A stretch of DNA of 64,000 nucleotides from an uncultured Halanaerobiales bacterium (GTDB lineage: Bacteria; Bacillota; Halanaerobiia; Halanaerobiales; M55B127), in contig CAYSHP010000007.1 in assembly GCA_964430875.1 (NCBI GenBank), forward strand, positions 1,736 to 65,735, written 5' to 3'. Of this stretch, positions 34,711-62,154 are shown piece after piece. Both the position numbers and the translations under genes were made by a program. How positions within the stretch are numbered: the stretch's first letter is position 1; each line of letters begins with the position of its first letter. The notes beneath the pieces are model-generated. The model made no database searches. It saw only the letters and a program-made list of their open reading frames with translations, and was not told the DNA's origin.

Positions 34711-34731
34711 TATATTTTTAATTATATATTA

Positions 34732-35646: not shown

Positions 35647-35682
35647 AACAACACTTCCTTTCTATAACTAAGTATATGTTTT

Positions 35683-38299: not shown

Positions 38300-38426
38300 A
38301 TTGCAAACTCACTCTCTTTTTTAAATATTTTTATTTAAAATGTCTCAAGAAAACTCCATCTAAATCTTATTTTTAATTCAGGTGGAGTAATTGACTAATC
38401 TATCAATAATTAAATTAAAATCAAGA

Positions 38427-38453
38427 TTGCTGCCTGATAACCACAGGCAGCAA
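38427..38453 (-). other. Stem-loop after the binding-protein gene (partial terminator or stabiliser typical of ABC operons)
   Basis: Minus strand UUGCUGCCUG-UGGUUAU-CAGGCAGCAA: a 10 bp stem with a weak U tract. Confidence 0.5.
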
Positions 38454-38488
38454 ATTATAAACTATTAATTTGAATATTTTAATAATCT

Positions 38489-39499: not shown

Positions 39500-39685
39500 T
39501 TTAACTTGCCTCCTATTATTGTTGGAATATTTATTCATAGATACAGTAAATATAAAAGCAAAACCACTCCTTTCTTTCCCTTTTATATTAACCATTATAA
39601 CATATTTTTTAAAAAAATATTATGTTTATAAACATTAATATTAATAATATTTTTTGTAAATTATTACAAATATATTATATTTTAT

Positions 39686-42507: not shown

Positions 42508-42524
42508 ATTTACACCTTCTATTT

Positions 42525-45951: not shown

Positions 45952-46043
45952 CAAATTCCCTCCTTATTAATGATAAGTCTTAATTTAGATAAATATTGAA
46001 GATAATCTTACACTTATTTTCCCTTTTAACACCTCCTCTTAAA

Positions 46044-47759
46044 TTAATCGCCTACTCCTAGGGAAACAAATTTATTCTCATCAATATCAAATAAACCTTG
46101 GTCAGTTATTTTTAAAGAAGGAATTACTGGTAAAGCCATGAAAGACAAGGTCATAATGGGACTCTGACGAGTTACCCCCATCGAATATACCTTTTCTTTC
46201 ATCTTCTTTAATTTTTTTGCTACTTCAGGTATTGAATCTTTAGACATCAAACCGGCAATTTCTAAAGAAAGACAGTCTAATAGTTTACCATCTTCAACTA
46301 CAGCAATACCACCCTGTAATTTCTCTATTTCTTTGACTGCTTTATACATATCTTTTGAATTTAAGCCAACCACAATAATATTATGTGAATCATGGCCAAT
46401 AGAAATAGCTATTGCTCCTTTACGGAGTCCAAAACCTTTGAGTAATCCTAAACCAACATTCCCGGTTTTTTTATGTCTTTCAACTACAGCTATTTTTACT
46501 AAGTTATTAGCAACTAAATCATCAATTTTTACTTTCTCATCAAATTTTATAATTTCTTTATCAGTTACTATTTGATCTTTTATTAAGCTCATCACACGAT
46601 ACTCTTTAAAATCGGGTAAATTGAAGTCCTGTTTTTTTAACTTACCAATATTAACTGATTTAAATATTTTTTCCGATTTTCCTTCTTTTATTTCAGGTAA
46701 ATTTACAATTAAGCTCTCATTTTCTGCTACAAGTCGACCATCTTTAAAGACTTTTTCTATATTAAAGTCTTTTAGATTATCAAGAATAACTAAATCTGCT
46801 TTATAGCCAGGCGCAATCGCACCCACATTATTTAAACCCAAAGCCTTAGCAGAATTAATAGTCGCTAATTTGATAGCCCTTAACGGTGAGATACCATTTT
46901 GAATTGCCTTTTTGATCACAAAGTTAATATGACCGTTTTCATATAAGTCTTCAGGGTCCCTGTCATCTGTGGCAAATAAAAATCTAGATAAATTACTATT
47001 ATTTACAGCCGGTAGTAAGTTCACGAGATCTCGTGTTACTGAGCCCTCTCTGATCATAACATACATACCCTTTGTTACTTTTTCAATTGCTTCCTCAGGT
47101 TCAGTACATTCATGATCTGCCATTATACCCCCAAGCAGATAAGCATTAAGTGCTTTGCCGCTGACCCCAGGGGCGTGCCCATCGATGAATTTATCACCAA
47201 TCATATCTATTTTTCCCCAAATGTTTTTATCTCCTTTGATCACTCCAACAAAATCCATTACTTCACCTAAACCAAAGATCCCTTCTTTGTCTTTAAGTTT
47301 AGCTAATTTATCGGCTGTTAACACAGCTCCAGAAGTTTCATTAGAGGTAGCAGGTACACAGGAGGGAAGCATTAAATTAAAGTTCCAGGGTAGCTTTGTC
47401 CCGCGGTCTAGAAAATATTTGATTCCATCTAAACCCGCTACATTAGCAATTTCATGTGGATCTGCAAACACAGTTGTGGTGCCTCTTGGCACTATCCAAG
47501 CTGCAAATTCATCCACTCTAACCATAGCACTTTCAAAATGAAGGTGCCCATCTATAAAACCAGGTGCAATAATATTTTCTTCAAAATCAATCTCCTTTAC
47601 CCCTTCATAATCACCAATACCAATTATCTTACCATCTGCAATTGCAATATCTTCTCTAATTAAGCGTTCATTAAACACATCAACTATTCTTCCGTGCTTT
47701 AAGACTAATTCCGCGGGTATTTCACCCTTAGCCATTTTTAAAATTCTATTGTTAATCAA
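46044..47759 (-). CDS. ade: Adenine deaminase
   Basis: 571 aa. PGFIDGHLHFES, DPHEIANV, DGHAPG and HDSHNIIVVG motifs. Confidence 0.9.
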   Translation of the reverse strand: MINNRILKMAKGEIPAELVLKHGRIVDVFNERLIREDIAIADGKIIGIGDYEGVKEIDFEENIIAPGFIDGHLHFESAMVRVDEFAAWIVPRGTTTVFADPHEIANVAGLDGIKYFLDRGTKLPWNFNLMLPSCVPATSNETSGAVLTADKLAKLKDKEGIFGLGEVMDFVGVIKGDKNIWGKIDMIGDKFIDGHAPGVSGKALNAYLLGGIMADHECTEPEEAIEKVTKGMYVMIREGSVTRDLVNLLPAVNNSNLSRFLFATDDRDPEDLYENGHINFVIKKAIQNGISPLRAIKLATINSAKALGLNNVGAIAPGYKADLVILDNLKDFNIEKVFKDGRLVAENESLIVNLPEIKEGKSEKIFKSVNIGKLKKQDFNLPDFKEYRVMSLIKDQIVTDKEIIKFDEKVKIDDLVANNLVKIAVVERHKKTGNVGLGLLKGFGLRKGAIAISIGHDSHNIIVVGLNSKDMYKAVKEIEKLQGGIAVVEDGKLLDCLSLEIAGLMSKDSIPEVAKKLKKMKEKVYSMGVTRQSPIMTLSFMALPVIPSLKITDQGLFDIDENKFVSLGVGD

Positions 47760-47813: not shown

Positions 47814-48902
47814 TTACTCTAATTTTAATGCACCAAAGTTACAACGGGTGATACATAGTCCACAGCCTGCACATTTATCAGGATCGATGACAATATAGTC
47901 TCTACTTTCATTATATGAAATAGCATCATATACACAACTGGTGATACATAAGCCACAAGTGGTACAGTTTTCTTCAATTACTGTTGGTACAACTGTATTA
48001 AAGTTAGCTTCTTCTTTAACCACCTGAGCAGTTAAACCTTTAATATCATTTACACTTTCATATCCATTTTCATCTAAGAATTTATTTAATTCTTCATTTA
48101 TTTTCTTATAGACACTAGGACCATTTACAATAGCTTCTGTACAAACCTGTACAGCAGATGCTCCAGCCATAAACATCTTGGCAGCTCTTAAGCCGCTATC
48201 AATACCACCTACACCAATAACAGGAATATCAACATTATTGGAGGCTTGGTAAACTGCTCTTAAGGCCAGTGGGAATATAGCTTCACCTGATAGCCAGCCA
48301 AATCCATTGTCACTACCCATTACTGGTTTTCCAGTTTTGGGATCAATATCTAAGGTTGGGCCAAAGGAATTAATCAATACAATACCATCTGCACCAGCTT
48401 CTTCAGCCGCTTTAGCAAATTCTGGTATGTCAATTCCCGGACTTAATTTAACGAAAACTGGAATATCGACTTCATCTTTAGCTGCTTTAATACTTTCTTC
48501 CATGGGAGTTGTGTCATCACCTAAATAGTGAGTAGAAAGTTCTAAAGCATCTGCATACTTTTCTACCTTTTTAGCTAACTCTCTAATTTGATCTTTTGTA
48601 TAACCAATACCTGCTATAACGGGTAAGCCTAATTCTCTAATCACAGGATATTCCTCTTCTAGCCAATGTTCTGGAGTTAGTTCGGACCATAGTTCAGTAT
48701 TTAAGAAACCACCTTTTATTCTAGCCATGTTTGGTCTCGGTACTTTAGCAGCCGTAGTAGAGATAGTCTTTGTAACGATTGCACCAGCCCCACCATTTTT
48801 GGCTCTTTTTGCTGCTTTTGCATCTTTAACTGGCGGACCGGCCGCCGGCATAACGGGATTATCTAATTCAATTCCTGCAAATTCTACTTTTAAATCAGCC
48901 AT
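47814..48902 (-). CDS. DHOD/DPD-like FMN oxidoreductase with C-terminal 2x[4Fe-4S] ferredoxin domain (PreA-like)
   Basis: ATG at 48902 (RBS GAGGAGTG). The TIM-barrel DHOD family N-terminus reads FAGIELDNPVMPAAGP. C-terminal CTTCGLCITSC and CAGCGLCITRC motifs. Confidence 0.85.
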   Translation of the reverse strand: MADLKVEFAGIELDNPVMPAAGPPVKDAKAAKRAKNGGAGAIVTKTISTTAAKVPRPNMARIKGGFLNTELWSELTPEHWLEEEYPVIRELGLPVIAGIGYTKDQIRELAKKVEKYADALELSTHYLGDDTTPMEESIKAAKDEVDIPVFVKLSPGIDIPEFAKAAEEAGADGIVLINSFGPTLDIDPKTGKPVMGSDNGFGWLSGEAIFPLALRAVYQASNNVDIPVIGVGGIDSGLRAAKMFMAGASAVQVCTEAIVNGPSVYKKINEELNKFLDENGYESVNDIKGLTAQVVKEEANFNTVVPTVIEENCTTCGLCITSCVYDAISYNESRDYIVIDPDKCAGCGLCITRCNFGALKLE

Positions 48903-48907
48903 CAATA

Positions 48908-49486
48908 TCACTCCTCATTTTTATTAATTTTCATAATTGTCTTTCTTAATTCTTGATAAATATCTTCAAAAACAGATTCATGGTTTTTTTCTTTAACCCT
49001 ATACATACTTATATCATTTCTGCTTCTTATCTTATCTAAAAACTTGTTATGCTCATCTTTGATTACAGCCAATACTGGTTTTTTACTGTCCATAATTTCA
49101 AACACTTTTTCTTGAAATTTTAAAGCCTTCAGCTCAAACCTCCCAAGTTCATCCATGACTAATATATCTCGAAATTTGCTTCCAATTTCTAAAAACTGAA
49201 CTCCTTTATCATCAAAAACCTCGGGATTAACTTGCCAATCTTGGGAAGGATGGTCTCTTTTCGCAAAAATCTGACATTTCTTTTTAAACCCTGCTGAATC
49301 TTTTCCCTGCCAATGGTAATAGTAATCCAGAGGATCTGTTAGGTAAAAACTTAACCACTGATTTATATTGCCTGTTCGACCTACTACAAATCCTCCGGGT
49401 TTTAGATTCAATTTATCTAAAATTCTTTTTACAATAGTACTTTTACCGACATACTTATCTCCGGTAATCAATATATTGTTTGGCAT
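48908..49486 (-). CDS. P-loop NTPase, THEP1/PF03266-like
   Basis: 192 aa. ILITGDKYVGKST (Walker A) and ILVMDELGRFEL (Walker B region) parallel Aquifex THEP1 (IIITGEPGVGKTT, IIIDEIGKMEL) as I remember it. The start overlaps the Mo-subunit stop. Confidence 0.7.
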   Translation of the reverse strand: MPNNILITGDKYVGKSTIVKRILDKLNLKPGGFVVGRTGNINQWLSFYLTDPLDYYYHWQGKDSAGFKKKCQIFAKRDHPSQDWQVNPEVFDDKGVQFLEIGSKFRDILVMDELGRFELKALKFQEKVFEIMDSKKPVLAVIKDEHNKFLDKIRSRNDISMYRVKEKNHESVFEDIYQELRKTIMKINKNEE

Positions 49487-50475
49487 TAATTATTTTTTTC
49501 CTCTAATGCATCTAATATTTTTTCTGGTGTAATCGGTAGACTTTTAATTCTAACACCGATTGCATCATAAACTGCATTTGCCACGGCAGGACTAGCAGCA
49601 ATTAAAGTAGGTTCACCTACTCCTTTAGAGCCAAAAGGTCCATCAGAATCTTTATTTTCAATTAAGGTACTTTCAAACTCGGGAATATCTTTAATACTGG
49701 GAACCAGGTAATTAGTCATATCGGCATTTAAGGTAATACCATCTTTAATCACTTGATCTTCCATTAAAGCCATACCTAATCCCTGAACTGTACCACCTTC
49801 AATTTGACCGTGTACATTTTGCGGATTAATAGCTTTTCCTACATCTAAAGCCGTATAGACATTCATTACTTCAATAATACCAGTATCGGTATCTACTTCT
49901 ATATCCATCACCTGAGTCATAAAAGTATAGGCTACATAGTTTTTCTCAGTTTGGCCTGTTTTCTTATCAGGGGCATAAGTTTTAGGAAAAAAGCTTGCTT
50001 CAGCACTCAGTTTTTTTCCTTTTTCTTCAATTATGTCTGCTAATTGCCAATAAGTTATCTTTTTATCCTCATCACAAGCGTATAATTCACCCTCCTTAAC
50101 AGTTAATTCTGGATGGTTACTGTTAAAATAAAGGCTGCCATGGTGATAGATTTTACCCATAACTTCTTCGGCCGCTTCTCTTACTGCATTACCGGAAAAG
50201 AAGGTTTGTCTACTAGCAGAAGTAGAACCGGAATTTTTTGCATTGTGAGTATCCTGACCGACAATTTCAATATAGGAAGGATCTATTTTTAAGACTTCCG
50301 CAGCAATCTGAATCATTGTTGTTAAAAAGCCTTGACCCATATCTGCACCAGCTGTTCTTAATTTAATCTTCTTGTCTGGGGTGATTTCTATTTCAGCAAT
50401 GGAATGATCGGGAAAACCCTCACCATATCCAAAGCCGAACATTATTGAGGCCATACCTCTTCCTTTTTTTCTCAT
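49486..50475 (-). CDS. Molybdenum hydroxylase, C-terminal half of the Mo-pterin subunit (NdhM-like)
   Basis: 329 aa. Aligns to residues about 440-765 of the full-length paralogue at 57168..59465 and contains GVGEPTL. It has an ATGA overlap with the N-terminal half and a GGGAGGGGGAG RBS. Confidence 0.9.
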   Translation of the reverse strand: MRKKGRGMASIMFGFGYGEGFPDHSIAEIEITPDKKIKLRTAGADMGQGFLTTMIQIAAEVLKIDPSYIEIVGQDTHNAKNSGSTSASRQTFFSGNAVREAAEEVMGKIYHHGSLYFNSNHPELTVKEGELYACDEDKKITYWQLADIIEEKGKKLSAEASFFPKTYAPDKKTGQTEKNYVAYTFMTQVMDIEVDTDTGIIEVMNVYTALDVGKAINPQNVHGQIEGGTVQGLGMALMEDQVIKDGITLNADMTNYLVPSIKDIPEFESTLIENKDSDGPFGSKGVGEPTLIAASPAVANAVYDAIGVRIKSLPITPEKILDALEEKNN

Positions 50476-51791
50476 TTGTTAATCTCCCCCTCCCATTTCG
50501 ACAGATTAATTGCTTCTTCTATTGTTCTTTTAGTATTTACACTTTTCCCTAACATCTGACCATTGGGAGTAATTGAACCGGTATCATAAGCATTTTGATA
50601 TCTAAATTGAGCAGGATCCATATTTAACTTCTGAGCAATTATATCAATTTGTGATTCATAAGCAAATGCCATCTGGGTTGTACCAAAACCGCGCATAGCA
50701 CCACCATAGGTGTTATTGGTATAAACTGCATAAGAAGTACCACGTACATTGGATACATTATATGGACCTGTACAGTGATACATTCCTTTATGAACTACAG
50801 CCGGGCCACTAGAAGCATAAGCTCCGGTATCTCCGATTACAAATACCTGCCAGGCAGTTAGATATCCATCATTTGTTACACCTGTCTTAGCTCTAATGGT
50901 AAGAGGGTGTCTTTTTGATTGAGAAATCATTGATTCTTCTCTTGTATATTCTAATTTAACCGGTCTATTTACACGCATTGCTGCTAAAGCAAGGTGAATA
51001 TGAACTGAAACATCTTCTTTTTTACCAAAAGCTCCCCCAATTGCAGCATTTATTATTCTAATCTTATCTTTCGACATATTTAAAGATTGAGCAACATCAG
51101 CTTGGGTATCATGTAACCACTGAGAAGCAGTCCAAATCTTTATTTCACCAGATTTTTCATCATAGACTGCATAGCCTGCCTCATTTTGTATAGGAAGTTG
51201 GTCGATATGTTGAGTCTGATAATCGTTTTTTACTATAAAATCAGCTTCTTCAAACCCTTTATCTACATCACCTTTTTCTAGATGATGATCAACTAAGATA
51301 TTTTTGCGGTTTACATCGGGACTTAAATATTCTGTACATAAATCATCTAAATCCTCATGAATGGCAGGAGCGTCTTTTTCGATGGCTCGATGTGCGTTAT
51401 CAATAACTTCTAATTTTTCTACTTCTACTTCGATTTTTTCTCTTGCTTTTAAGGCAGCTTCGGCTGTTTCAGCTACAACTATGGCTAAAGCATCTCCCAT
51501 AAATCTCATTTTTTCACCAATTTTAATTAAAACAGGTTGGTCTTTAATGATTAGACCAAATTTATTGAGATCTGGGTAGTCTGCTTCTGTAATGATATCT
51601 ACGACGCCCTTAACTTTCTTAGCCTTACTAATATCTAAATCTTTTAAAATCGCATGAGGATAAGTTGCTCTTTTGACTTTAACATGTAAATAATCATCAA
51701 ACTTTAAATCAGATGGGTAATTAGCTTGTCCGGTGACTTTATCCTTTGCATCTACTTTTAAGATGTCTTCTCCTACATATCTTTTAGACAT
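50472..51791 (-). CDS. Molybdenum hydroxylase, N-terminal half of the Mo-pterin subunit (NdhL-like)
   Basis: The start is moved to ATG at 51791, giving MSKRYVGEDILKVDAKDKVTG. Contains GGAFGKKE and GGAMRGFG motifs. Confidence 0.9.
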   Translation of the reverse strand: MSKRYVGEDILKVDAKDKVTGQANYPSDLKFDDYLHVKVKRATYPHAILKDLDISKAKKVKGVVDIITEADYPDLNKFGLIIKDQPVLIKIGEKMRFMGDALAIVVAETAEAALKAREKIEVEVEKLEVIDNAHRAIEKDAPAIHEDLDDLCTEYLSPDVNRKNILVDHHLEKGDVDKGFEEADFIVKNDYQTQHIDQLPIQNEAGYAVYDEKSGEIKIWTASQWLHDTQADVAQSLNMSKDKIRIINAAIGGAFGKKEDVSVHIHLALAAMRVNRPVKLEYTREESMISQSKRHPLTIRAKTGVTNDGYLTAWQVFVIGDTGAYASSGPAVVHKGMYHCTGPYNVSNVRGTSYAVYTNNTYGGAMRGFGTTQMAFAYESQIDIIAQKLNMDPAQFRYQNAYDTGSITPNGQMLGKSVNTKRTIEEAINLSKWEGEINK

Positions 51792-52266
51792 TATCTTCAC
51801 CCCCACTTTGCATCTTGTGGGATGCCTCTTTGACAGCATCAACTATCTTGACATATCCGGTACATCTACATATATTACCGGATAAACCTCTTTTGATTTC
51901 TTCATCACCTGGATTTATATTATCATCGAGTAACTTTTTGCTGGACATAATCATTCCGGGTATACAAAAACCACACTGTACTGCCCCGGTTTCAATAAAG
52001 GACTGCTGGATTGGGTGTAACTTCTCTTTATCTCCTAATCCTTCTACAGTCTGTATCTCAGCACCATCAGCCTGGGGAGCTAATACCAGACAAGAAGCTA
52101 CCACTTTATTATTCATGATTACTGTACAAGCACCACATTCACCTTTTCCACAACCTTCTTTAGTTCCTGTTAGTCCAAGATCTTCTCTTAAAAGGTCTAG
52201 TAAGCGGGTATGTGGTTTAACATCTACTTCTCTTTTTTGACCATTAACTGTTAATTTAATTTTCAT
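51784..52266 (-). CDS. Molybdenum hydroxylase [2Fe-2S] subunit
   Basis: 160 aa. CGKGECGACTV and CGFCIPG..CRCTGY. Confidence 0.95.
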   Translation of the reverse strand: MKIKLTVNGQKREVDVKPHTRLLDLLREDLGLTGTKEGCGKGECGACTVIMNNKVVASCLVLAPQADGAEIQTVEGLGDKEKLHPIQQSFIETGAVQCGFCIPGMIMSSKKLLDDNINPGDEEIKRGLSGNICRCTGYVKIVDAVKEASHKMQSGGEDNV

Positions 52267-53168
52267 TGGTTAATCACCTCATTTAGGGCACTTTTAGTTA
52301 TATTAAAAGCGACCTGTCTGCGGTATTTAGCTGTACCTCTAATATCATCAATCGGTGATATTTTATCTGAAACTATCTGTGCTATTTCTTCTATATTTAC
52401 ATTATTAATTTTTTTGGCAAGTAATTCATCTTCTGCTTTTTTAATTCTAAGTGGTGTTGGAGCAGCTGAACCCACACATATTCTACTTTCTTTAATTTTT
52501 TTATCTTCATCAAACACAATATTAAAAGCTAAACTTATTGATGAAATAACGAGGGCTTTTCTTTTACCTACTTTAACCCAGGCCCCTCTGTACATTTCAT
52601 CTCTTAAAGGAAGAATTATTTTTTCAACAATTTCTCCCTTTTTTAATACATTTTTCTTGGGCCCTGTAAAAAATTCATTGGCATCTACAATACGTTCCCC
52701 ATCTTTTGAAATCAGTTTTAATTTAGCATTATAGACTAAAAGGGGTGGTAGTAAATCACCGGCTGGTGATGATGTAACAATATTCCCACCAATAGTACCC
52801 CTACTTCTAATCTGGGGTGAACCGACATCAGCCGCTGCCTGTTGAATGACAGGGAAAAGTTCTTTGATCTTATCTAATTTATAGAGTCTTTCATGAGTGA
52901 CCATAGAACCAATTTCGACCTTATCATCATAAATCTTGATCTCTTTAAATTCACTTACCCAGTTTAAATCGAGCCATCTATCAACTTTATATAGATTATT
53001 ATAATGTTCAACTAAAAGATCAGTACCTCCCGCTATTACGGTAAGGGCATCCTCATAATCTCTCAATACCTGCATTAATCCTTCTTTTGTTTGTGGCCTA
53101 AAGTAACTGTTAAAATCTTCTCCAGAAGTCTTTGGCCTGTTGTTTGCATTTTTTGATTGTTTTTTCAT
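52263..53168 (-). CDS. Molybdenum hydroxylase FAD-binding subunit
   Basis: 301 aa. IAGGTDLLV and TIGGNI motifs. The only in-frame start gives a 59-nt overlap with ssnA. Confidence 0.88.
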   Translation of the reverse strand: MKKQSKNANNRPKTSGEDFNSYFRPQTKEGLMQVLRDYEDALTVIAGGTDLLVEHYNNLYKVDRWLDLNWVSEFKEIKIYDDKVEIGSMVTHERLYKLDKIKELFPVIQQAAADVGSPQIRSRGTIGGNIVTSSPAGDLLPPLLVYNAKLKLISKDGERIVDANEFFTGPKKNVLKKGEIVEKIILPLRDEMYRGAWVKVGKRKALVISSISLAFNIVFDEDKKIKESRICVGSAAPTPLRIKKAEDELLAKKINNVNIEEIAQIVSDKISPIDDIRGTAKYRRQVAFNITKSALNEVINQ

Positions 53169-54447
53169 AATCTAAAACTTTCACCTCCTGGTTTTCCATC
53201 AAAACATGTCCATTTACAATTGTACTATCAACTAAACCCCCATTGAAACCAAATAGGATATGGTAAAAATAATTTTCATCGGTTATCGGAGTCGGAGATT
53301 TATAATCTACAACTATAATATCAGCGGGCACATCTTTTTTAATAATACCTAACTCTTTATCAAAATATTGTTTTGCTATCTTTCGATTATTTTCAAAAGC
53401 AATTTTATTAATATCTTCTCCACCTAGATTAGGATCTAAATTGTTATGCTTTTGTAAAAGATCGGCAACATTGATACTTTCAAACATGTCTGTGGTATAA
53501 CCATCAGTACCAAGTCCTATTGTTAAATCCTTATCTAAAGCTTTTCTTAAGTTAATTGCACCTACTGCATTTCCCATATTGGATTCAGGGTTGTGGATTA
53601 AAAACACATTATTATCCGCAAGTATTTCATATTCACTTTCAGATAAATGTACTCCATGAATTGCCAGTGAATCTTCTCTTAATATATTTAACTTATCAAA
53701 ACGATCTGCTAGATTCTTATAACCGCGTTTTTTACTATCTTCTTCATCTACTTTGCCTTCAGCTGCATGAAAGTGTGTTGGTGTATTGGTGCTTTCAGCA
53801 AGTTCAGCAACCTCTCTTAAAGTTTTATCACTTAAAGTAAAGGAGGCATGTAGACCAATGGCGGGAGTAATAAAATCGCTATTTAGCTTCCTAGCACGCT
53901 TAATAAAACGCTCATTTTCTTTGATTGCCTGTTTTGCTTTTTGTTCACCATGACGGTCAGAAATCTCATAAGATAGACTGGTTCTAAGTTTAGACTTTAC
54001 AACTGCCTCTGAGATTATATCAAGACTGTTTTCGATATATCCATAACTTGCATGGTGGTCAAAAATAGTCGTTGTACCACTTCGTATACTTTCAACTAAA
54101 GCATATATCGTACTGTAATAGATATCTTCACTATTTAGGGTTTCATCTAAACGCCACCATAGTTTTTCTAATATTTCTTCAAAATTTTGTGGTGGTAGCT
54201 CGGTTTTTAAATCCATACCACGTGCAAAAGTACTGTAAAAATGCATATGAGAATTTATCATTCCAGGCATGATTACTTTACCTTTTACATCTTTAAAGTC
54301 TGCTTCCTGATATCTAACCTTTAAATTATCAGTTTTACCATAATCTTTTATAATACCTTCATCAATTAATACAGCACCATCATTAATAACAGGGTCATTT
54401 GAATTTAAGGTGATTAATACACCATTTCCATAAAGTTTCAAGTTCAA
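53110..54447 (-). CDS. ssnA: SsnA-type amidohydrolase (putative aminohydrolase of the purine cluster)
   Basis: 445 aa. SHMHFYS, LWWRLD, FDHHAS, HAAE, GTDG, YKSPTP and a C-terminal FWRRF parallel E. coli SsnA as I remember it. Confidence 0.85.
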   Translation of the reverse strand: MNLKLYGNGVLITLNSNDPVINDGAVLIDEGIIKDYGKTDNLKVRYQEADFKDVKGKVIMPGMINSHMHFYSTFARGMDLKTELPPQNFEEILEKLWWRLDETLNSEDIYYSTIYALVESIRSGTTTIFDHHASYGYIENSLDIISEAVVKSKLRTSLSYEISDRHGEQKAKQAIKENERFIKRARKLNSDFITPAIGLHASFTLSDKTLREVAELAESTNTPTHFHAAEGKVDEEDSKKRGYKNLADRFDKLNILREDSLAIHGVHLSESEYEILADNNVFLIHNPESNMGNAVGAINLRKALDKDLTIGLGTDGYTTDMFESINVADLLQKHNNLDPNLGGEDINKIAFENNRKIAKQYFDKELGIIKKDVPADIIVVDYKSPTPITDENYFYHILFGFNGGLVDSTIVNGHVLMENQEVKVLDYEKTIKKCKQQAKDFWRRF

Positions 54448-54453
54448 CCCTCC

Positions 54454-55821
54454 TTATTTACTTAAAAGATCTTGCGCAATCTGATTGTGTTTCTTTATTA
54501 CATTATATTCTTTAATAGTTGTTAATTCTCCTTTTCGAACTACAACTTTACCGTCCACTATATTGTAATCTACTTCTTGAGTAGTGCCTGTATTTACTAA
54601 TGCTTCAACCGGATCACTTTGCCCACCTGCAAAACCTAACCTATCACTTCTAACCATGAAAAGGTCAGCAGCTTTACCTTCTTCAATACTGCCTATTTCT
54701 GGTTGGTTAAGTACATCTCTACCTCCATTAGTGGCAATAGATAATACATCTTCAGAAGATATACTTTTAATACCATGAATCAATTTATGCAGTAGATAGG
54801 CAAGCTTTAACTCTAAAATCATATTAGAGGCATCATTACTAGCACTACCATCAACTGCTAGACTAACCGGTACATTCTTTTTAAGCATATACGGAATCTT
54901 AGCTGCTCCCGAAGATAACTTCATATTTGAAGCAGGGCAGTGGGAAACACCCGTACCTGTTTCGGCTAGTTTTACTATTTCAAATTCATTAAAATGCACT
55001 CCATGGGCAAACCAGACATCTTTACCAATCCAACCCCATTCTTCCATCAAATCTAAGGGTCTTTTACCAAAGGTATCAACACAGTATTGGTTTTCATCTT
55101 GAGTTTCAGCAAGATGAGTATGGCTTAATACATTGTTTTTTCTAGCCAATTTTATTGATTCAACCATTAGGTCTTCTGAAACAGAAAAAGGTGAACACGG
55201 TGCTAATACTACCCTCTGCATTGCATATTTGCTATCATCATGGAATTTATCAATTACTCTCTGGGAATCATTTAAGATTTCATCTTCACTTTGTACAACC
55301 GAAGCAGGTGGTAATCCACCATCTTCTTCACTTAACGACATACTACCCCTGCTACCATGAAATCTAATACCGATTTCTTTAGCAGCTTTAAACTGATAAT
55401 CCATTAAATTATCAGGTTGGCTTTCGGGAAAGACATAAAAATGATCCACACTGGTAGAACAACCTGTCTTTAAAAGTTCTGCTGATGCTAATAATGTACT
55501 ATAGTATACTGCTTCCGGTGTTAGGTTAGACCAGATTGGATAAAGGAATTTAAGCCAGTTAAACAGCTCAACTCCTTGTGCTTCAGGAATATTGCGGGTT
55601 AAGGTCTGGTAGAAGTGATGGTGGGTATTTATTAAGCCGGGAAAGGCGAAATAGTTCCCGGCTTCAATTATCTCATCAACTTCATCTTCGCCTATATCAA
55701 TATTATCATCAATTGTTTTTATTTTTTTATCTTCAATTAAGATATCAGTGTTTTTATAACGGTTTCTTTTTTCATCCATCGTGATTAACTCTTTAATGTC
55801 TCTAATTAAAATTTTAGACAT
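54454..55821 (-). CDS. COG0402 amidohydrolase, guanine/8-oxoguanine deaminase-like
   Basis: The start is moved to ATG at 55821 (GGAG inside the upstream stop region), giving MSKILIRD. Motifs: NTHHHFYQTLTR, HTHLAE, HGVH, AVDGSASND. Confidence 0.82.
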   Translation of the reverse strand: MSKILIRDIKELITMDEKRNRYKNTDILIEDKKIKTIDDNIDIGEDEVDEIIEAGNYFAFPGLINTHHHFYQTLTRNIPEAQGVELFNWLKFLYPIWSNLTPEAVYYSTLLASAELLKTGCSTSVDHFYVFPESQPDNLMDYQFKAAKEIGIRFHGSRGSMSLSEEDGGLPPASVVQSEDEILNDSQRVIDKFHDDSKYAMQRVVLAPCSPFSVSEDLMVESIKLARKNNVLSHTHLAETQDENQYCVDTFGKRPLDLMEEWGWIGKDVWFAHGVHFNEFEIVKLAETGTGVSHCPASNMKLSSGAAKIPYMLKKNVPVSLAVDGSASNDASNMILELKLAYLLHKLIHGIKSISSEDVLSIATNGGRDVLNQPEIGSIEEGKAADLFMVRSDRLGFAGGQSDPVEALVNTGTTQEVDYNIVDGKVVVRKGELTTIKEYNVIKKHNQIAQDLLSK

Positions 55822-55822
55822 T

Positions 55823-56299
55823 TTATTCACTCCTGTCTTTGTTAACAACACTTTCAATCGCTTCTATGATTTGTTGATAACCGGTACATCTACAGAGATT
55901 ACCCTCTATAGCAGTTTTAATCTCTTCTCTATCAGGATCCGGCTTTTCATTGAGTAATGCCTTTGCCGACATTAACATACCGGGTGTACAAAAACCACAC
56001 TGTACGGCTTGATGGTCGATAAATGCTTCTTGTAAAGGATCTAGCTTACCATCGATCTCTAATCCTTCCACAGTTAAGACTTCACTGCCATCAATCTGGA
56101 AAGTGTAGACCATACAGGAGTTAACCGCTTTGCCATCTAAAACTACTGTACAGGCTCCACATTCACCTATACTACAGCCTTCTTTAACTCCTGTCAGGTG
56201 TAATCTGTCTCTTAAGGTATCAAGTAGTCTTTCATCTGACGGAACTTTTATATTATGTTCTTTGCCATTAACGGTTAAGGTTACATTAACTTCTTCCAT
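55823..56299 (-). CDS. Xanthine dehydrogenase-type [2Fe-2S] subunit
   Basis: 158 aa. CSIGECGACTV and CGFCTPG..CRCTGY. Confidence 0.95.
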   Translation of the reverse strand: MEEVNVTLTVNGKEHNIKVPSDERLLDTLRDRLHLTGVKEGCSIGECGACTVVLDGKAVNSCMVYTFQIDGSEVLTVEGLEIDGKLDPLQEAFIDHQAVQCGFCTPGMLMSAKALLNEKPDPDREEIKTAIEGNLCRCTGYQQIIEAIESVVNKDRSE

Positions 56300-56301
56300 T
56301 A

Positions 56302-57171
56302 TTACTGCACCTCCTTAACTATTGACTGGAGGGCTCTCTTTAATAGATTACCAACAACAGGTCTTTTATAAGGAGTAGACCATCTTTCACCTGTAATACC
56401 GACCATTTCCTCGCTGGTTTTTTCAGCTAATTGTTCATAATCTATGGCTGAGAGGTCAGCTCCTGCAAGTTCTTTTTCAATTTCTTTAAATCTTGTAGCA
56501 GTAGGAGTAGCAGAGCCAAATGCTACCCTAATATCATTAAATTTATTGTCTTTAACTTTGGTAATTACAGCTAAATTAATTCTAGCTATAGCAACAGCCT
56601 GACGTCTTTTTACCTTTTGATAACAATCATAGTATTCGTCCTGTATATATGGTACCTTTACTTCCGTCATTATTTCATCTTCTTTACGGTCAGTACAATA
56701 AGGACCAGTAATAAATTCACTTAAAGGTAGTTCCCTCTTGCCGTGACTGGAATGTAAAACCACCGAAGCATCAAGAGCAATTAGGGCAGTTACTAAATCA
56801 GCTGCGGGTGAAGCATTATTGACATTACCGCCCACCGTTCCTCGATTTCTAATTTGGGTAGAGCCGATAACTTCCGCTGCTTTTTGTAAGATAGGAAACT
56901 TTTCATTTATTAATACGGAGTCCATAATTTCACTGTGAGTAACTAAAGCTCCCAGCCTTAAATACTCTCCGTTATCTTCTATAACATCTAAACCGGAAAT
57001 AGCGCTAATATCTAAAAGATACTTCATCTCTTTTAGATCATCACTTTCATGATGAATCTGTACTAACATATCGGTTCCACCGGCAACCATTTTCACTTCG
57101 TTTTTCTTATCAGCTAGTATATCTATAGCTTCATCTAGACTATTGGCCTTTAACGCTTCAAATTCTATCAT
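56302..57171 (-). CDS. Xanthine dehydrogenase-type FAD-binding subunit
   Basis: 289 aa. VAGGTDMLV and TVGGNV. Confidence 0.9.
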   Translation of the reverse strand: MIEFEALKANSLDEAIDILADKKNEVKMVAGGTDMLVQIHHESDDLKEMKYLLDISAISGLDVIEDNGEYLRLGALVTHSEIMDSVLINEKFPILQKAAEVIGSTQIRNRGTVGGNVNNASPAADLVTALIALDASVVLHSSHGKRELPLSEFITGPYCTDRKEDEIMTEVKVPYIQDEYYDCYQKVKRRQAVAIARINLAVITKVKDNKFNDIRVAFGSATPTATRFKEIEKELAGADLSAIDYEQLAEKTSEEMVGITGERWSTPYKRPVVGNLLKRALQSIVKEVQ

Positions 57172-59465
57172 TTATGATCAACCCCTTTGTGTAAGTCCTT
57201 GCCCACAATGATTTTTTCGAGGTTAAGAGGTAATGATCTAATCCTCTTTTTAGTTGCATTAGCAACAGCATTAGCAATTGCAGCTGCTCCTAATTCAAGG
57301 GTAGGTTCACCAATTGATTTAGCTCCAAAAGGACCGTTTGGATCTGGATTTTCAACAATAATTGGCTCTATATCGGGCATATCTTTGACAGTCGGTATCA
57401 TATATTCATCAAAGTTAGTGTTTTCTATATATCCTTGATCTGTTTCTATTTCTTCCATAACACCATAACCTAAGCCCATGGAAACACCGCCATAGATTTG
57501 TCCTTTAACATTAGCGGGGTTAATAGCGCGTCCTACATCATGGGCAGCTGTCATGTTTAATACATCTATTTCACCGGTGCCAGTATCAACTTCAACTTCA
57601 GCGACCTGACATCCATAGACATAAGTGAAATAGGGGCGACCATGGCCAGTTTCTTCATCCCAAGAAATATCAGGGGATACATACCAACCATAGGTAGTCA
57701 GATAAACACCTTCCATAGCGGCTTTAGAAGCCATTTCATTAATACTCATAATCTCAACATCTTTTTGACCATAAATAGAGCCATCTTTGATATAGATATC
57801 TTCTTTATCTTGGTCATATTTATCTGAAATATATTCTTTTATCTTTTCAATTAAATTATCAGCAGCTTTCTTAACAGCATTACCACCGATTAGAGTTGCC
57901 CGCGAAGCAACTGTTGAACCACTATCCGGTGAAATTAAGGTGTCAACCTGCATAAAGTTAATCTTATCAGTATCTAAACCTAATGCTTCCGCAGCCATCT
58001 GACAGTAGACAGTTTTAAGTCCCTGTCCGTTTTCTGCTAAGCCAGAATAAAGGCTTACACTACCGTCTTTTTTAAGTGATAAGATAATACCAGCTGCATC
58101 GATTGCTTCTGCACCTAAACTACAACCTCTAAAACTAATAGAAAGTCCAATACCTTTTTTCTTATCACCGGGTTGTTCTTTACTATATTCTTTATATTTT
58201 TCAACAAAGTTACTTTTTTCTACTGCCTTTGTTAATACTTCTTCTAAACTAACTTCATGATTATCAAGTTTTTGTCCACTGGCTGTAAATGAGTTATTAT
58301 GGTAGATATTTTTCATCCTCAATTCAACTGGATCCATATCTAACTCATCTGCTAGTTCATCCATCAAGGATTCCTGTGCAAAGATAACCTGTGGAGAACC
58401 ATAACCACGCATCGCACCTGTGTATACATTATTTGTATAGTATCCATAAGTATCTGTTTTAACATTATCTACTTCATAAGGACCTGTGGCCTGTACTACA
58501 GATCTCCAGGTTACAAAAGGAGTCTGGCAGGCATAGGCTCCACTGTCTGCAACAGCTTCAATTTCCATAGCCTGAATCTTGCCATCTTCAGTTGCACCTA
58601 TCTTATACTTCATATGATAGGGATGTCTTTTATAACTTTCTTTAATAGATTCATCTCGACTATTTACAAGTTTTATAGGCCTTTCAGTTTTTAAAGCTAA
58701 AACTGAAGCTCTAGCGGCCATAGATGAAATAACTTCATCCTTACCTCCAAAAGAACCGCCCATATGGTTTTGAACAATTCTTACCTTATTTAAGTCTTCC
58801 TGTAAAACGGTTGCTACTGCATTTTGGGTAGCAAAAGGATTTTGAACTGAACCATAAACGGTGACAGTTGAATTTTCTTGATAAGGAACTGCAACTACCG
58901 CTTCCGGTTCAATATATGACTGTTCAATAAAGGGAGTATCATATTCCCTTTCTATAATTACATCTGAGTTTTCAAAACCTTTTTTCGGATCTCCTTTTCT
59001 CAAAGGGTGATGGATGACTTGATTGTCTTCTAAATCTTCATGTACTAACTGTGCATCTTCTTCTCTTGCCTCTAAAGGGTCATATATACCTTCTAACTCT
59101 TCATATTCCACCTCAATCTTTTCAGCTGCTTTAGCAGCCTGCTTAGCTGTTTCAGCTGCAACTACGGCTATACCATCACCTATATATAATGCTTTTTCTT
59201 TAGCTAGCACTTGTTGATTTTCAATAATTACACCAAATTCATTATTAGGTATATCGGCGGCTGTAATTACTGCTACTACGCCCGGCATTTTTTCCGCGTT
59301 TGTAGTATCTATACTCTTGATCTTCGCATAAGGATATTCAGTATGAAGAACTTTTCCATAAAGCATATCTGGAAATCTCATATCTGCTCCATACTTTGCT
59401 TTACCGGTTACTTTTTCGTAAACATCTACTCTTTTTTCTGATTTGTTTACATGTGCAAACTCCAT
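57168..59465 (-). CDS. Xanthine dehydrogenase-type molybdopterin subunit (full length)
   Basis: 765 aa. GGSFGGKDE, GAMRGYG and SIGEPTL motifs. Confidence 0.95.
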   Translation of the reverse strand: MEFAHVNKSEKRVDVYEKVTGKAKYGADMRFPDMLYGKVLHTEYPYAKIKSIDTTNAEKMPGVVAVITAADIPNNEFGVIIENQQVLAKEKALYIGDGIAVVAAETAKQAAKAAEKIEVEYEELEGIYDPLEAREEDAQLVHEDLEDNQVIHHPLRKGDPKKGFENSDVIIEREYDTPFIEQSYIEPEAVVAVPYQENSTVTVYGSVQNPFATQNAVATVLQEDLNKVRIVQNHMGGSFGGKDEVISSMAARASVLALKTERPIKLVNSRDESIKESYKRHPYHMKYKIGATEDGKIQAMEIEAVADSGAYACQTPFVTWRSVVQATGPYEVDNVKTDTYGYYTNNVYTGAMRGYGSPQVIFAQESLMDELADELDMDPVELRMKNIYHNNSFTASGQKLDNHEVSLEEVLTKAVEKSNFVEKYKEYSKEQPGDKKKGIGLSISFRGCSLGAEAIDAAGIILSLKKDGSVSLYSGLAENGQGLKTVYCQMAAEALGLDTDKINFMQVDTLISPDSGSTVASRATLIGGNAVKKAADNLIEKIKEYISDKYDQDKEDIYIKDGSIYGQKDVEIMSINEMASKAAMEGVYLTTYGWYVSPDISWDEETGHGRPYFTYVYGCQVAEVEVDTGTGEIDVLNMTAAHDVGRAINPANVKGQIYGGVSMGLGYGVMEEIETDQGYIENTNFDEYMIPTVKDMPDIEPIIVENPDPNGPFGAKSIGEPTLELGAAAIANAVANATKKRIRSLPLNLEKIIVGKDLHKGVDHK

Positions 59466-59623: not shown

Positions 59624-60991
59624 TTAACATTCAATACGTTTTTCTTTTCGGGGTAAAAGTAAGTTAAGTAAGATAGCACTTATAGCACCAACAGTTATTC
59701 CAGATGATAAAACTGTAGAAAGTATATTAGGTAACTTACTCACTATATCTGGCCTAAAAGTTACTCCTAAGCCGACACTTAAAGCTATTGAAAGGATAAA
59801 AATCTTACGATCTGTTAAACCACCCCTTACAATTATTTTCATACCAGAAGTAGCTACCATACCGAATAAAGCTATAGTTGCTCCTCCCAGAACAGGTTTA
59901 GGCATCACACTAATTAAAGCACCAATTTTAGGTAAAAGTCCTAAAATTACCAGGATCCCTGCCACTGCATAACCAACTACTCTACTGCCCACCTTGGTCA
60001 TTTGAATAACTCCCACATTTTGACTAAAGGTAGTATTAGGCATTGTGTTAAAGATTGCCGCGATGGCTGAACCTACACCATCAGCCAGGATACCCCCACT
60101 GATTCTTTCTCGATAAAGGTCACCTTCAACAGGTTCTCCAGAAACTTCTGAAATCGCAGTTAAGTCTCCAATTGATTCAATTGATGTAATAATATAAGCT
60201 ATAATCCAGGGCAATAAATGTGATATTCTAAAGGACATTCCAAATTTAAATGGTACAGGAACTGTAAACCAGCCAGCATCAGCGACAGGCTGAAAATCAA
60301 CTATACCTAAAGGTATTGAAACTATATAACCTGCTACTAAACCAATAGCTACTGCTCCTACCTTGATTAAACCATTTCCAAATCTATTTGCAATTACAAT
60401 AATTACTAGAACAAAGGTACCTAATAATAGATTTTGAACACTTCCAAAGTTTTCAGCACCTACTCCTCCACCAAAATCCGTTATACCAACTTCCATTAAA
60501 CCTAAACCAATAAGCATAACCACTACACCTGTTACTACAGGTGGAAAAAGTTTTTTAGTTTGTTTAATAAATCTACTAATTACCATTTCCACAGGAGAAG
60601 CTGCTAAAGCCATCCCTAAGACCAAGGCTAAACCACCAGTATTAACAGCTGAAATAGCCATTGGCACAAAAGTGAAGCTAGTACCATGTACACCTAACAA
60701 ACCAGATCCTACTGGTCCAAATTTACGACATTGAATATAAGAAGCTACCCCTGAAACAATAAGGGCCATATTAACAAAAAAAGCTGATTCAGCTGCATTT
60801 AATCCGGCTGCTCCGGCAATAATTAGAGGTGGTGTAATTATACCTACAAACATAGCTAACATATGTTGAAATCCCAATAGGATAGTTTCACCCGTAGGTG
60901 GTCTATCTTCTAATTCATAATATGCTTCCTCTTCGACCACAGTTTCATATTCCTGTTCTTTTGCTTTTTGGTCCTCTACTTTTTTACTCAT
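59624..60991 (-). CDS. NCS2 uracil/xanthine/uric-acid permease
   Basis: The start is moved to ATG at 60991 (RBS AAAGGAGAG). 12-14 TM segments, with a TFSQNVGV motif typical of xanthine/urate NCS2 carriers. Confidence 0.9.
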   Translation of the reverse strand: MSKKVEDQKAKEQEYETVVEEEAYYELEDRPPTGETILLGFQHMLAMFVGIITPPLIIAGAAGLNAAESAFFVNMALIVSGVASYIQCRKFGPVGSGLLGVHGTSFTFVPMAISAVNTGGLALVLGMALAASPVEMVISRFIKQTKKLFPPVVTGVVVMLIGLGLMEVGITDFGGGVGAENFGSVQNLLLGTFVLVIIVIANRFGNGLIKVGAVAIGLVAGYIVSIPLGIVDFQPVADAGWFTVPVPFKFGMSFRISHLLPWIIAYIITSIESIGDLTAISEVSGEPVEGDLYRERISGGILADGVGSAIAAIFNTMPNTTFSQNVGVIQMTKVGSRVVGYAVAGILVILGLLPKIGALISVMPKPVLGGATIALFGMVATSGMKIIVRGGLTDRKIFILSIALSVGLGVTFRPDIVSKLPNILSTVLSSGITVGAISAILLNLLLPRKEKRIEC

Positions 60992-61033
60992 ATTAACTCT
61001 CCTTTTTATAATATTCAAAAATTTTTTAAATGG

Positions 61034-61170: not shown

Positions 61171-62154
61171 TTATTTGCCACCCATTGTTAAAGCCATCAC
61201 AGCTTTAGCGGTATGAAGTCTGTTTTCAGCTTCATCATAAACGATAGAGTGGGGTCCATCTATTACAGAGTCTTCTACTTCATTGCCTCTATCTGCAGGC
61301 AGAGCATGCATGTACATAACATCTTCATCTGCCATTGCCATCATCTCTTCTGTACATTTCCAATCTTTATGTGATTCTAGGTTATCATCTATTACCTCAT
61401 CACTTTGATTTGTAACCCAGCTGCCCCAGTTTTTAGGAATAACTATATCGGCATCAGTATAGGCTACTTCCATATCATGAGTAATCTTAAATGAACCACC
61501 ATGTTTTTCAGCATTCGCTCTGGACTGTTCAATTACCCAATCAGGTAAGTCATAACCTTCTGGATAAGCTAAAGTAACATCCATTCCGAATCTTGGGAAG
61601 AGAAGTGATTGAGTTACCGGAACTGAAATCGGTTTCTTATGGCTTGTTGCATAAGCCCAAATGATAGAAATTTTTAAATTTCGGATTTTTTCTCTTTTTT
61701 CCATAATAGTCATTAAATCCGCAATACCCTGCATTGGATGGTAAAGATCATCTTGTAAACTTAATATAGGTACAGGAGCCCATTTAGCTAAACTTGTTAA
61801 ATAATCATTACCAATACCCCAATCACAGTTACGACAGGCTATCATATGACCGTATCTACCTAAGATAATAGCTGTGTCTTTAGCTACTTCACCGTGAGAA
61901 ACCTGCATGGTAGAAGTATCTAAAAAGTTAGCATGTCCACCTAATTGAGCTAAACCAGCTTCCATAGAGTTTCTAGTTCTTGTTGATTGTTCAAAAAACA
62001 TCAACATACCAGTTTTGTTATTTAAATAAGGTGTATCAAGACCCATTGCGAATTTCTTTTTTAAGTCAAAAGAGACTTCTAATAATGTATCAAGTTCTTC
62101 CTTTGACCAATCTTGTAAAGTTATAAAGTCTTTTCCTCTAAATTCAGTTTTCAT
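61171..62154 (-). CDS. ygeW: YgeW-type (knotted) carbamoyltransferase
   Basis: 327 aa. STRTR and HPMQ motifs. WAYATSHKKPISVP..RFGMDVTLAYPEGYDL and KDWKCTEEMM closely parallel E. coli YgeW as I remember it. Confidence 0.82.
   Translation of the reverse strand: MKTEFRGKDFITLQDWSKEELDTLLEVSFDLKKKFAMGLDTPYLNNKTGMLMFFEQSTRTRNSMEAGLAQLGGHANFLDTSTMQVSHGEVAKDTAIILGRYGHMIACRNCDWGIGNDYLTSLAKWAPVPILSLQDDLYHPMQGIADLMTIMEKREKIRNLKISIIWAYATSHKKPISVPVTQSLLFPRFGMDVTLAYPEGYDLPDWVIEQSRANAEKHGGSFKITHDMEVAYTDADIVIPKNWGSWVTNQSDEVIDDNLESHKDWKCTEEMMAMADEDVMYMHALPADRGNEVEDSVIDGPHSIVYDEAENRLHTAKAVMALTMGGK

Follow-up and report, generated by a model that had tools for sequence, protein, structure and literature searches.

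Two distantly paralogous molybdenum hydroxylases in a predicted Halanaerobiales variant of the reductive urate gene cluster

Here, we describe a purine-related gene string on a 64,000-nucleotide (nt) stretch of DNA (hereafter the window) from an uncultured Halanaerobiales bacterium (contig CAYSHP010000007.1 of assembly GCA_964430875.1, positions 1,736 to 65,735). The string lies on the minus strand, and it encodes two molybdenum (Mo) hydroxylases, which we call set 1 and set 2, together with a number of genes known from purine catabolism. An earlier note on this DNA had already described two paralogous molybdenum hydroxylases in one gene string, and both are complete. Using a comparison of gene content, gene neighbourhoods in related organisms, phylogeny and active-site residues, we examined which pathway the string may serve and which reaction each of the two enzymes may catalyse.

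Genes of the two molybdenum hydroxylases

All seven open reading frames (ORFs) of the two sets were recovered on the minus strand at the coordinates that the earlier note had given, and they are listed below with their Pfam assignments. Each set contains Mo, flavin adenine dinucleotide (FAD) and 2x[2Fe-2S] (FeS) subunits, and in set 2 the Mo subunit is divided into two proteins, L and M (lengths in amino acids, aa).

57168 to 59465, minus strand: set 1 Mo subunit, 765 aa, 84 kDa; Ald_Xan_dh_C, MoCoBD_1 and MoCoBD_2 (Pfam)
56302 to 57171, minus strand: set 1 FAD subunit, 289 aa; FAD_binding_5 and CO_deh_flav_C (Pfam)
55823 to 56299, minus strand: set 1 2x[2Fe-2S] subunit, 158 aa; Fer2 and Fer2_2 (Pfam)
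52263 to 53168, minus strand: set 2 FAD subunit, 301 aa, with its Pfam domains; best solved structure 3HRD_C
51784 to 52266, minus strand: set 2 2x[2Fe-2S] subunit, 160 aa, with its Pfam domains; 3HRD_D at 179 bits
50472 to 51791, minus strand: set 2 L subunit, 439 aa, with only Ald_Xan_dh_C (hammerhead) and MoCoBD_1; 3HRD_A at 324 bits
49486 to 50475, minus strand: set 2 M subunit, 329 aa, with only MoCoBD_2; 3HRD_B at 208 bits

Both sets belong to the xanthine oxidase family by the Pfam domains of the seven proteins, by the eight cysteines kept in the FeS subunit of each set, and by the conservation in both of Gln767 and the catalytic Glu1261 (bovine numbering, used throughout). The predicted masses are 84/32/17 kDa for set 1 and 49/36/34/17 kDa for set 2. 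Between the sets, identity amounts to about 40% for the Mo subunits, 52% for the FeS subunits and 34% for the FAD subunits, and the two sets are distant paralogues; the earlier note had also called them paralogous. The NCBIfam equivalog cut-offs were reached by neither set, and NCBIfam scores give no separation of the two. Eleven genes, from the set 1 Mo gene through uacX, are tightly packed with overlaps or gaps of a few bases. No minus-strand terminator-like site was seen in this interval by a promoter/terminator scan that was itself not above chance, since its sites were no more frequent than in shuffled sequence.

The L and M proteins of set 2 together are one Mo subunit. The split falls in the linker between MoCoBD_1 and MoCoBD_2, the L/M junction reads ...TGGGAGGGGGAGATTAACAAATGAGAAAA with an ATGA stop/start overlap, and the ribosome-binding site (RBS) ahead of the M start is GGGAGGGGGAG. 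Residue 1 of M aligns with residue 1 of NdhM from Eubacterium barkeri, and separate L and M genes were found in eight orthologues from other organisms, with overlaps of 1 to 44 nt when measured from the first possible start codon. Because of the ATGA overlap, the RBS and the eight split orthologues, the split is a real two-gene arrangement and not a frameshift, and the earlier note was right to read it in this way. For the L gene, the ATG at 51791 has GGGGGTGAAG upstream and gives an 8-nt overlap with the FeS gene; this start is supported by an equal overlap in Halobacteroides.

The split is a known and evolutionarily labile feature, and it is not special. In homologues of nicotinate dehydrogenase (NDH), the Mo domains are often divided between two polypeptides (Liu et al., bioRxiv 10.1101/2025.04.24.650524), and among the best 150 cluster representatives that match M, about 40 are separate proteins of its size. 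In neighbour-joining trees built from Kimura-corrected distances (a first tree with 200 bootstraps and a final tree with 150), the set-2-type sequences form one clade (150/150), in which unsplit and fused members branch between the split ones. Split, unsplit and re-fused forms are thus interleaved in one clade, and the state of the Mo subunit varies among close relatives. One joined form was observed in a Halanaerobiaceae metagenome-assembled genome (MAG; locus L017, 12588 to 15059), where a single 823-aa ORF covers L and M, connected by a linker of about 45 residues in which Asp, Glu, Ala and Lys abound; this form nests among split forms in the tree. At the other end of set 2, the last 59 nt of ssnA are also the first 59 nt of the FAD gene (53110 to 53168, minus strand), and an overlap of 58-62 nt is called at this place in Halobacteroides, Petrotoga, locus L089 and Halarsenatibacter.

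Gene content and conservation of the purine operon

A reductive urate (2,8-dioxopurine, or yanthine) pathway was described in 2025 in Escherichia coli, Clostridium sporogenes and C. difficile (Liu et al., bioRxiv 10.1101/2025.04.24.650524; Li et al., Life Metab 2025, PMC12507026). In this pathway, hypoxanthine and xanthine are converted to urate by a separate XdhABC, and two enzymes are known for the step from urate to 2,8-dioxopurine: in clostridia the FeS-Mo fusion XdhAC (DOPDH), which is selective for urate and 2,8-dioxopurine, and in E. coli XdhD-YgfM. YgfK then reduces the ring, a task that falls to the PydA-like UacX in C. difficile, SsnA opens it, and the final steps employ HyuA, YgeW/YqeA (or UacY), YgeY and YgeX (bioRxiv 10.1101/2025.04.24.650524; PMC12507026). 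SsnA is the ring-opening hydrolase acting on reduced 2,8-dioxopurine, and the C. difficile UacX has been assayed and converts 2,8-dioxopurine together with SsnA (PMC12507026). The following genes of the window bear on this pathway.

62175 to 63416, minus strand: YgeY, M20 hydrolase; TIGR03526 at 729 bits (cut-off 321), 73% identity to E. coli YgeY
61171 to 62154, minus strand: carbamoyltransferase resembling ornithine carbamoyltransferase (OTC), presumed YgeW counterpart; OTC at 247 bits (cut-off 281), YgeW at 193 bits (cut-off 453)
54454 to 55857, minus strand: amidohydrolase of the 8-oxoguanine deaminase family; NF006055 at 587 bits (cut-off 532)
53110 to 54447, minus strand: SsnA; NF005540 at 563 bits (cut-off 444), TIGR03314 at 530 bits (cut-off 455)
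47814 to 48911, minus strand: UacX, predicted 2,8-dioxopurine reductase; PydA/PreA-like flavin mononucleotide barrel with DHO_dh-type matches and a C-terminal ferredoxin domain, 2x[4Fe-4S]
46044 to 47759, minus strand: adenine deaminase; TIGR01178 at 614 bits (cut-off 472)
21292 to 22683, minus strand: HyuA-like dihydropyrimidinase/hydantoinase; TIGR02033 at 391 bits (cut-off 393), 34% identity to E. coli HyuA

The pair that marks the pathway, SsnA and a 2,8-dioxopurine reductase, is present: SsnA scores above its cut-offs, and UacX is 50-57% identical to the UacX encoded beside SsnA in Clostridium and Paraclostridium loci. Because SsnA and UacX are accompanied by YgeY and a carbamoyltransferase, the string from about position 64000 down to 43965 can be read, from its genes, as a purine-fermentation operon and a Halanaerobiales variant of the reductive urate cluster. 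The earlier note had suggested a role in purine metabolism, and a purine-catabolic operon around both enzymes is borne out by SsnA, YgeY and adenine deaminase, all above their NCBIfam cut-offs. It had also likened the pair to enzymes of the purinolytic Clostridium purinolyticum; here the neighbours SsnA, UacX, YgeY and carbamoyltransferase point to the reductive urate route instead of the xanthine-amidohydrolase route, and no marker of the latter was found in the operon.

For the lower part of the pathway, the window holds a less canonical set. YgeY, which cleaves the ureido group in a late step, is above its cut-off, the HyuA-like protein is borderline and distant from the cluster, and the carbamoyltransferase belongs to a non-YgeW family. 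The carbamoyltransferase shares 37% identity with E. coli YgeW, stays below the cut-offs of both OTC and YgeW, and adjoins YgeY in related clusters (it was not found in the metagenome contig L090). The HyuA-like gene is detached, 25 kb off the cluster, and its neighbours are phoU and a gene for a TetR-type regulator; Petrotoga, Selenihalanaerobacter and L090 carry its orthologue within the cluster. A tblastn search of the window gave neither YqeA nor YgeX. Just past window position 64000 (locus L001, 1980 to 4728), where YgeX would be, two pyridoxal phosphate (PLP) enzymes are encoded, a CysK/SbnA-like protein of 491 aa and a ThrC-like protein of 416 aa. The same pair was seen in Selenihalanaerobacter and Halarsenatibacter, and L090 has the ThrC-like one with a 488-aa PALP protein that was not compared. 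The amidohydrolase gene is directly upstream of ssnA in every related cluster, and its product could act as a deaminase that supplies urate or as a further hydrolase for ring opening; a protein of this type also occurs in two Clostridium loci without HyuA nearby (L026 and L052).

Compared with the published clusters of E. coli, C. sporogenes and C. difficile, the window shares true SsnA and YgeY, a HyuA-like hydantoinase, a carbamoyltransferase, MocA, permeases and two xanthine-oxidase-family enzymes, and it shares a UacX-type reductase with the C. difficile cluster. In contrast to them, it has no DOPDH (XdhAC) fusion, XdhD/YgfM, YgfK, YgeX or YqeA, its carbamoyltransferase is OTC-like and not YgeW, two other PLP enzymes lie at the place of YgeX, and both of its Mo enzymes come from non-XdhABC lineages.

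With these genes, adenine deaminase would convert adenine to hypoxanthine, one Mo hydroxylase would oxidise hypoxanthine and xanthine to urate, and the second Mo enzyme would remove the 6-oxo group of urate to give 2,8-dioxopurine. UacX would then reduce the ring of 2,8-dioxopurine and SsnA would open it, and the HyuA-like hydantoinase, the carbamoyltransferase, YgeY and the PLP enzymes would carry the product on to pyruvate and ammonia.

The gene string is conserved beyond the window. With both sets, it was found in Halobacteroides halobius, Petrotoga, Halanaerobium saccharolyticum and several Halanaerobiales and Bacillota MAGs, which gives 11 such clusters with the window included, and the order YgeY, carbamoyltransferase, permease, set 1, amidohydrolase, SsnA, set 2, (NTPase), UacX, adenine deaminase, permease, MocA is kept. 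A twelfth cluster, from an Atribacteria MAG, has YgfK replacing UacX, and a nucleoside-transport block is inserted there between the set 1-SsnA part and the true YgfK, after which set 2 follows. Set 2 comes after ssnA in all clusters except that of Atribacterota, and adenine deaminase is present in all clusters of this group. When set 1 was used to search for homologues, all matches were orthologues of at least 67% identity, and gene contexts of remoter homologues were not obtained. We also compared the gene content of 80 SsnA-centred loci, most of which pair SsnA with YgfK or UacX. Many of them add HyuA and an FeS-Mo fusion of 850 aa (34 of these fusions being complete), and some also carry an E. 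coli-type XdhABC.

Selenium markers are found in relatives of the cluster. By tblastn, yqeB, yqeC and selD, which the earlier note had proposed to look for elsewhere in the genome, were absent from the 64-kb window. The orthologous Halobacteroides cluster has a true YqeB (TIGR03309, 334 bits, cut-off 220) and a YqeC-like gene after MocA, and L090 carries YqeB and YqeC. Because of these markers in the Halobacteroides cluster and in L090, this enzyme set may plausibly depend on selenium.

Slot replacement and assignment of the reactions

A comparison was made with three sister clusters, those of Selenihalanaerobacter shriftii, Halarsenatibacter silvermanii and the L090/L091 metagenome contigs, which were reached via the nearest unsplit relatives of M. 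Their flanking genes are orthologues of those in the window, with identities of 70-73% for the 491-aa PALP protein (not compared for L090), 75-76% for the carbamoyltransferase, 55-58% for the amidohydrolase and 49-50% for SsnA, and the PuuR-like regulator at the same place is 59-64% identical. UacX is 62-63% identical in the two cultured species, and L090 has PreT/PreA instead. After ssnA, each sister cluster encodes an unsplit set-2-type enzyme (FAD, FeS and a Mo subunit of 759-782 aa), directly in the two cultured species and past a permease gene in L090. The unsplit Mo subunit of L090 is 55% identical to set 2, and those of the cultured species are 58-60% identical to L by BLAST.

Set 1 is absent from these sister clusters. 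In its slot, upstream of the amidohydrolase-SsnA pair, the two cultured species encode an FeS-Mo fusion of 913-916 aa, which adjoins UacX in Selenihalanaerobacter; in L090 the fusion comes after the set-2-type genes and adjoins PreT/PreA. In two of the three clusters, then, the next gene downstream of the fusion is that of UacX or PreT/PreA. The fusion of L090 has TIGR03311 as its best family (742 bits) and keeps the residues of the DOPDH clade at positions 802, 873, 876, 880, 1005, 1006 and 1078. A search with it returned orthologues of 54-57% identity in Selenihalanaerobacter and Halarsenatibacter; its best 120 matches included none from Halobacteroides, Halanaerobium or Petrotoga, although the complete genomes of set 1 carriers were not scanned. 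In 146/150 bootstraps, the three sister fusions fall together with the DOPDH-type fusions of clostridia. All 15 related clusters encode a set-2-type enzyme, and their second enzyme is either a DOPDH-clade fusion or set 1, never both.

The adenine deaminase in all these clusters calls for an enzyme that oxidises hypoxanthine to urate. Since the set-2-type enzyme is constant and its partner is either the fusion or set 1, the simplest reading is that set 2 would be the xanthine/hypoxanthine dehydrogenase of the cluster and set 1 the urate reducer, as a non-orthologous, in-place replacement of the urate-reducing DOPDH. We assign this reading a probability of about 0.5, and the reaction and the electron donors of each enzyme are predictions from sequence. 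Owing to the replacement in place, set 1 can also be put to the test as a candidate urate 6-dehydroxylase of a third type, and it is from this replacement only that we infer its putative urate-reducing function. In its fuller form, the proposal is that a three-subunit Mo/FAD/FeS enzyme, of other descent than the clostridial XdhAC fusion and E. coli XdhD-YgfM, was recruited independently and displaced the fusion in place in Halanaerobiales, Petrotoga and Atribacterota, while the set 2 clade, split or unsplit, acts as xanthine dehydrogenase (XDH); we put this forward tentatively, at slightly under even odds.

Set 1 shares its position in the cluster with the DOPDH fusions of the two cultured sister species, and the role predicted for it is that of DOPDH. 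It differs from the DOPDH fusions, both the clostridial ones and the longer ones of 913-950 aa in Selenihalanaerobacter and Halarsenatibacter, in having three separate subunits with an FAD subunit among them, in an identity of 33-36%, and in never falling in the same clade. A precedent for such a layout is E. coli XdhD-YgfM, a urate-reducing Mo enzyme whose separate FAD subunit is encoded just after ssnA and which shows that the activity is not confined to the DOPDH clade of clostridia. Set 1, which also has an FAD subunit to itself, would resemble XdhD-YgfM in layout and not in descent. XdhD itself is an FeS-Mo fusion that is about 30% identical to both sets and has an active-site insertion (Glu606) absent from both, and the scores for the XdhD/YgfM type (TIGR03313/TIGR03312, cut-off 1102) are only 297 bits and 189 + 143 bits.

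Neither set corresponds to the other described types. On TIGR03311 (cut-off 830), set 1 reaches 443 bits and set 2 reaches 359 + 157 bits; neither is fused, and the clostridial DOPDH signature (Leu873, Pro876, Lys1005, Asn1006 and Thr or Ser at 1078) is absent in set 1 and partial in set 2. The earlier note had called set 1 an XdhABC type. In gene order (Mo, FAD, FeS) and subunit sizes, set 1 is indeed like E. coli XdhABC and C. sporogenes XDH, but identity is about 30%, and its active-site residues differ from those of XdhA-type enzymes, which have Gln802 and Tyr1078. The best scores of set 1 for XdhABC/PucCDE are 565 bits for NF043082 (cut-off 780) and 558 bits for pucD (cut-off 784). Its Mo subunit forms a clade of its own (200/200) and groups with E. 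coli XdhA or the clostridial XdhABC clade in 0/200 bootstraps, so the XdhABC label is not retained for an enzyme that also occupies the slot of a DOPDH-type fusion in the sister clusters.

Several observations weigh against our assignment. Set 1 groups with the DOPDH clade in 0/150 bootstraps, and its active-site residues (D802/E803, Q873, F876, W879, R1005 and V1078) are unlike those of DOPDH. Set 2, NDH and DOPDH form a clade in 124/150 bootstraps of the final tree (141/200 in the first), DOPDH sequences score 497 bits on a set 2 profile and 406 bits on a set 1 profile, and E802-D803, F914, S1078 and a Pro-Asn-Gly loop are common to set 2 and DOPDH. In gene order, set 2 follows ssnA with FAD and then FeS/Mo, like ygfM-xdhD in E. 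coli, and it directly follows a true YgfK in Atribacteria. In addition, a DOPDH-type gene may lie elsewhere in the genomes of set 1 carriers. The case of E. coli XdhD, where urate-reducing activity is not bound to one clade or residue signature, counts here as well, though it cuts both ways. Nor do residues 802, 880, 914, 1009 and 1078 give a clear assignment of substrates: the canonical ones are missing from E. coli XdhD and also from the XdhABC-type XDH of clostridia, whose function is genetically proven, and the alignment of the 1004-1014 loop is uncertain.

The shared clade, the shared residues and the two gene orders would fit a reversal of the roles, in which set 2 would be the urate/2,8-dioxopurine enzyme working with SsnA and UacX, and set 1 (and the long fusions of the sister clusters) would be the XDH. 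The position of set 2 between ssnA and uacX with overlapping genes would fit this as well, as would the finding that set 2 and the 850-aa fusion occur together in 0 of the 80 SsnA-centred loci. We consider such a reversal unlikely, though with real support, as the three sister clusters pair a set-2-type enzyme with a fusion of DOPDH signature, which in two of them is directly beside the reductase gene; the sister clusters would then hold two candidates for one step, and a member of the DOPDH clade would have to be an XDH. Adjacency to the reductase does not discriminate between the roles, because XdhABC-YgfK adjacency is also common in other phyla.

Our first idea had been that set 2 is the DOPDH counterpart. 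It was based on the 0 of 80 loci with both enzymes, the first tree (141/200) and the YgfK-set 2 order in Atribacteria, and it was downgraded because the sister clusters hold a set-2-type enzyme together with a DOPDH-clade fusion at the place of set 1.

The earlier note had suggested a different pair of functions by analogy with C. purinolyticum, a purine hydroxylase and an XDH. In this model, set 2 would hydroxylate purine and hypoxanthine to xanthine, set 1 would convert xanthine to urate and back, and the step from urate to 2,8-dioxopurine would be encoded elsewhere or unused. Self and Stadtman reportedly described in 2000 a four-subunit and a three-subunit purine enzyme in that organism, with masses similar to those of sets 2 and 1, and the adenine deaminase of the operon could supply the hypoxanthine. 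This model seems quite improbable to us: xanthine is cleaved hydrolytically in C. purinolyticum, whereas the operon of the window, with SsnA and UacX, which act on 2,8-dioxopurine, and with no xanthine-amidohydrolase marker, is predicted to encode the reductive route, and set 1 replaces a DOPDH-clade enzyme in the same slot. If set 1 were merely an XDH, the pathway would be left without its entry step in 11 conserved clusters.

The other analogy drawn in the earlier note was with NDH of E. barkeri, whose genes run in the order F-S-L-M. In architecture the likeness is confirmed: the four subunits of NdhF/S/L/M (PDB 3HRD) are of near-equal size to those of set 2, the Mo subunit is split at the same linker, and 3HRD chains A, B and C are the closest solved structures for L, M and the FAD subunit, with chain D a close second for the FeS subunit. 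A nicotinate dehydrogenase identity is nevertheless effectively excluded for set 2, which is related to NDH but not its orthologue. Identity is only 42%, residue 802 is Glu in all set-2-type sequences but Leu in NDH and a Desulfotomaculum-type relative, only 14/150 bootstraps unite set 2 with NDH, the window contains no genes of the nicotinate pathway, and every orthologue examined sits in a purine cluster. The Desulfotomaculum/Peptococcaceae-type contig of that relative (L092) encodes a split enzyme in the order L, M, FAD, FeS, with 52% identity to E. barkeri NDH and Leu802, and its neighbours are an amidohydrolase, a large Fe-S protein, a TRAP transporter and YqeC. This enzyme groups with NDH in 141/150 bootstraps, and L092 is probably a true nicotinate-type cluster.

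Surrounding genes and significance

The remaining genes of the operon are the following.

63450 to 63989, minus strand: helix-turn-helix/cupin PuuR-like regulator, first gene of the cluster in the window; NCBIfam PuuR at 83 bits, under its cut-off
59624 to 61018, minus strand: xanthine/uracil permease (pbuX family); TIGR03173 at 463 bits (cut-off 414)
48908 to 49486, minus strand: NTPase_1 (THEP1-like); PF03266 at 98 bits, translationally coupled on both sides
44629 to 45954, minus strand: second nucleobase permease; PF00860 at 161 bits
43965 to 44663, minus strand: MocA-like molybdenum cofactor cytidylyltransferase; TIGR03310 at 169 bits, just under the cut-off of 186

The NTPase_1 gene lies between M and uacX with overlaps of 1 nt and 4 nt, and it is kept there in Petrotoga and L089. 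Weak homologues were seen near UacX or a DOPDH fusion in two Clostridium loci (L037 and L058), and the protein may have a putative role in maturation. A ModE-like gene adjoins MocA. Beside these two, a Peripla_BP_2-type binding protein and an ATP-binding cassette (ABC) ATPase are encoded (41740 to 43532, minus strand) without a FecCD permease, and Petrotoga and L089 hold all three genes in the corresponding position. Downstream of the purine operon (31042 to 39595, minus strand) follow a Bmp-type nucleoside ABC transporter (34732 to 39595) and psuK/psuG (31042 to 32857), and the region looks like a wider nucleoside-catabolism island.

An Rfam scan of the window gave no purine riboswitch. Two other riboswitches were found on the minus strand, a c-di-GMP-I-GGC riboswitch at 15449 to 15527 (71 bits, gathering 59), upstream of a gene for a methyl-accepting chemotaxis protein (13040 to 15112), and a fluoride riboswitch at 34650 to 34716 (42 bits, gathering 34), upstream of a CPA2-type antiporter gene (33408 to 34601) and a DUF190 gene (33053 to 33433).

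In conclusion, the pair of enzymes reported in the earlier note is real and was well described, and its interpretation needs to be updated from the 2025 literature. What is new is a cluster variant that is widespread in halophilic and subsurface anaerobes and in which two NDH-related lineages replace XdhABC and DOPDH. With it, the reach of the pathway extends from gut bacteria to halophilic and subsurface anaerobes (Halanaerobiales, Petrotoga and Atribacterota). The entry enzyme of the pathway is known in two unrelated forms, and if our assignment is true, a third form with its own FAD subunit would mean that regiospecific removal of the 6-oxo group of urate evolved repeatedly in one enzyme family. 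In that case, these enzymes would also provide clean comparison sets for the determinants of C6 versus C8 specificity, and they would broaden the choice of enzymes for engineered urate-degrading probiotics.

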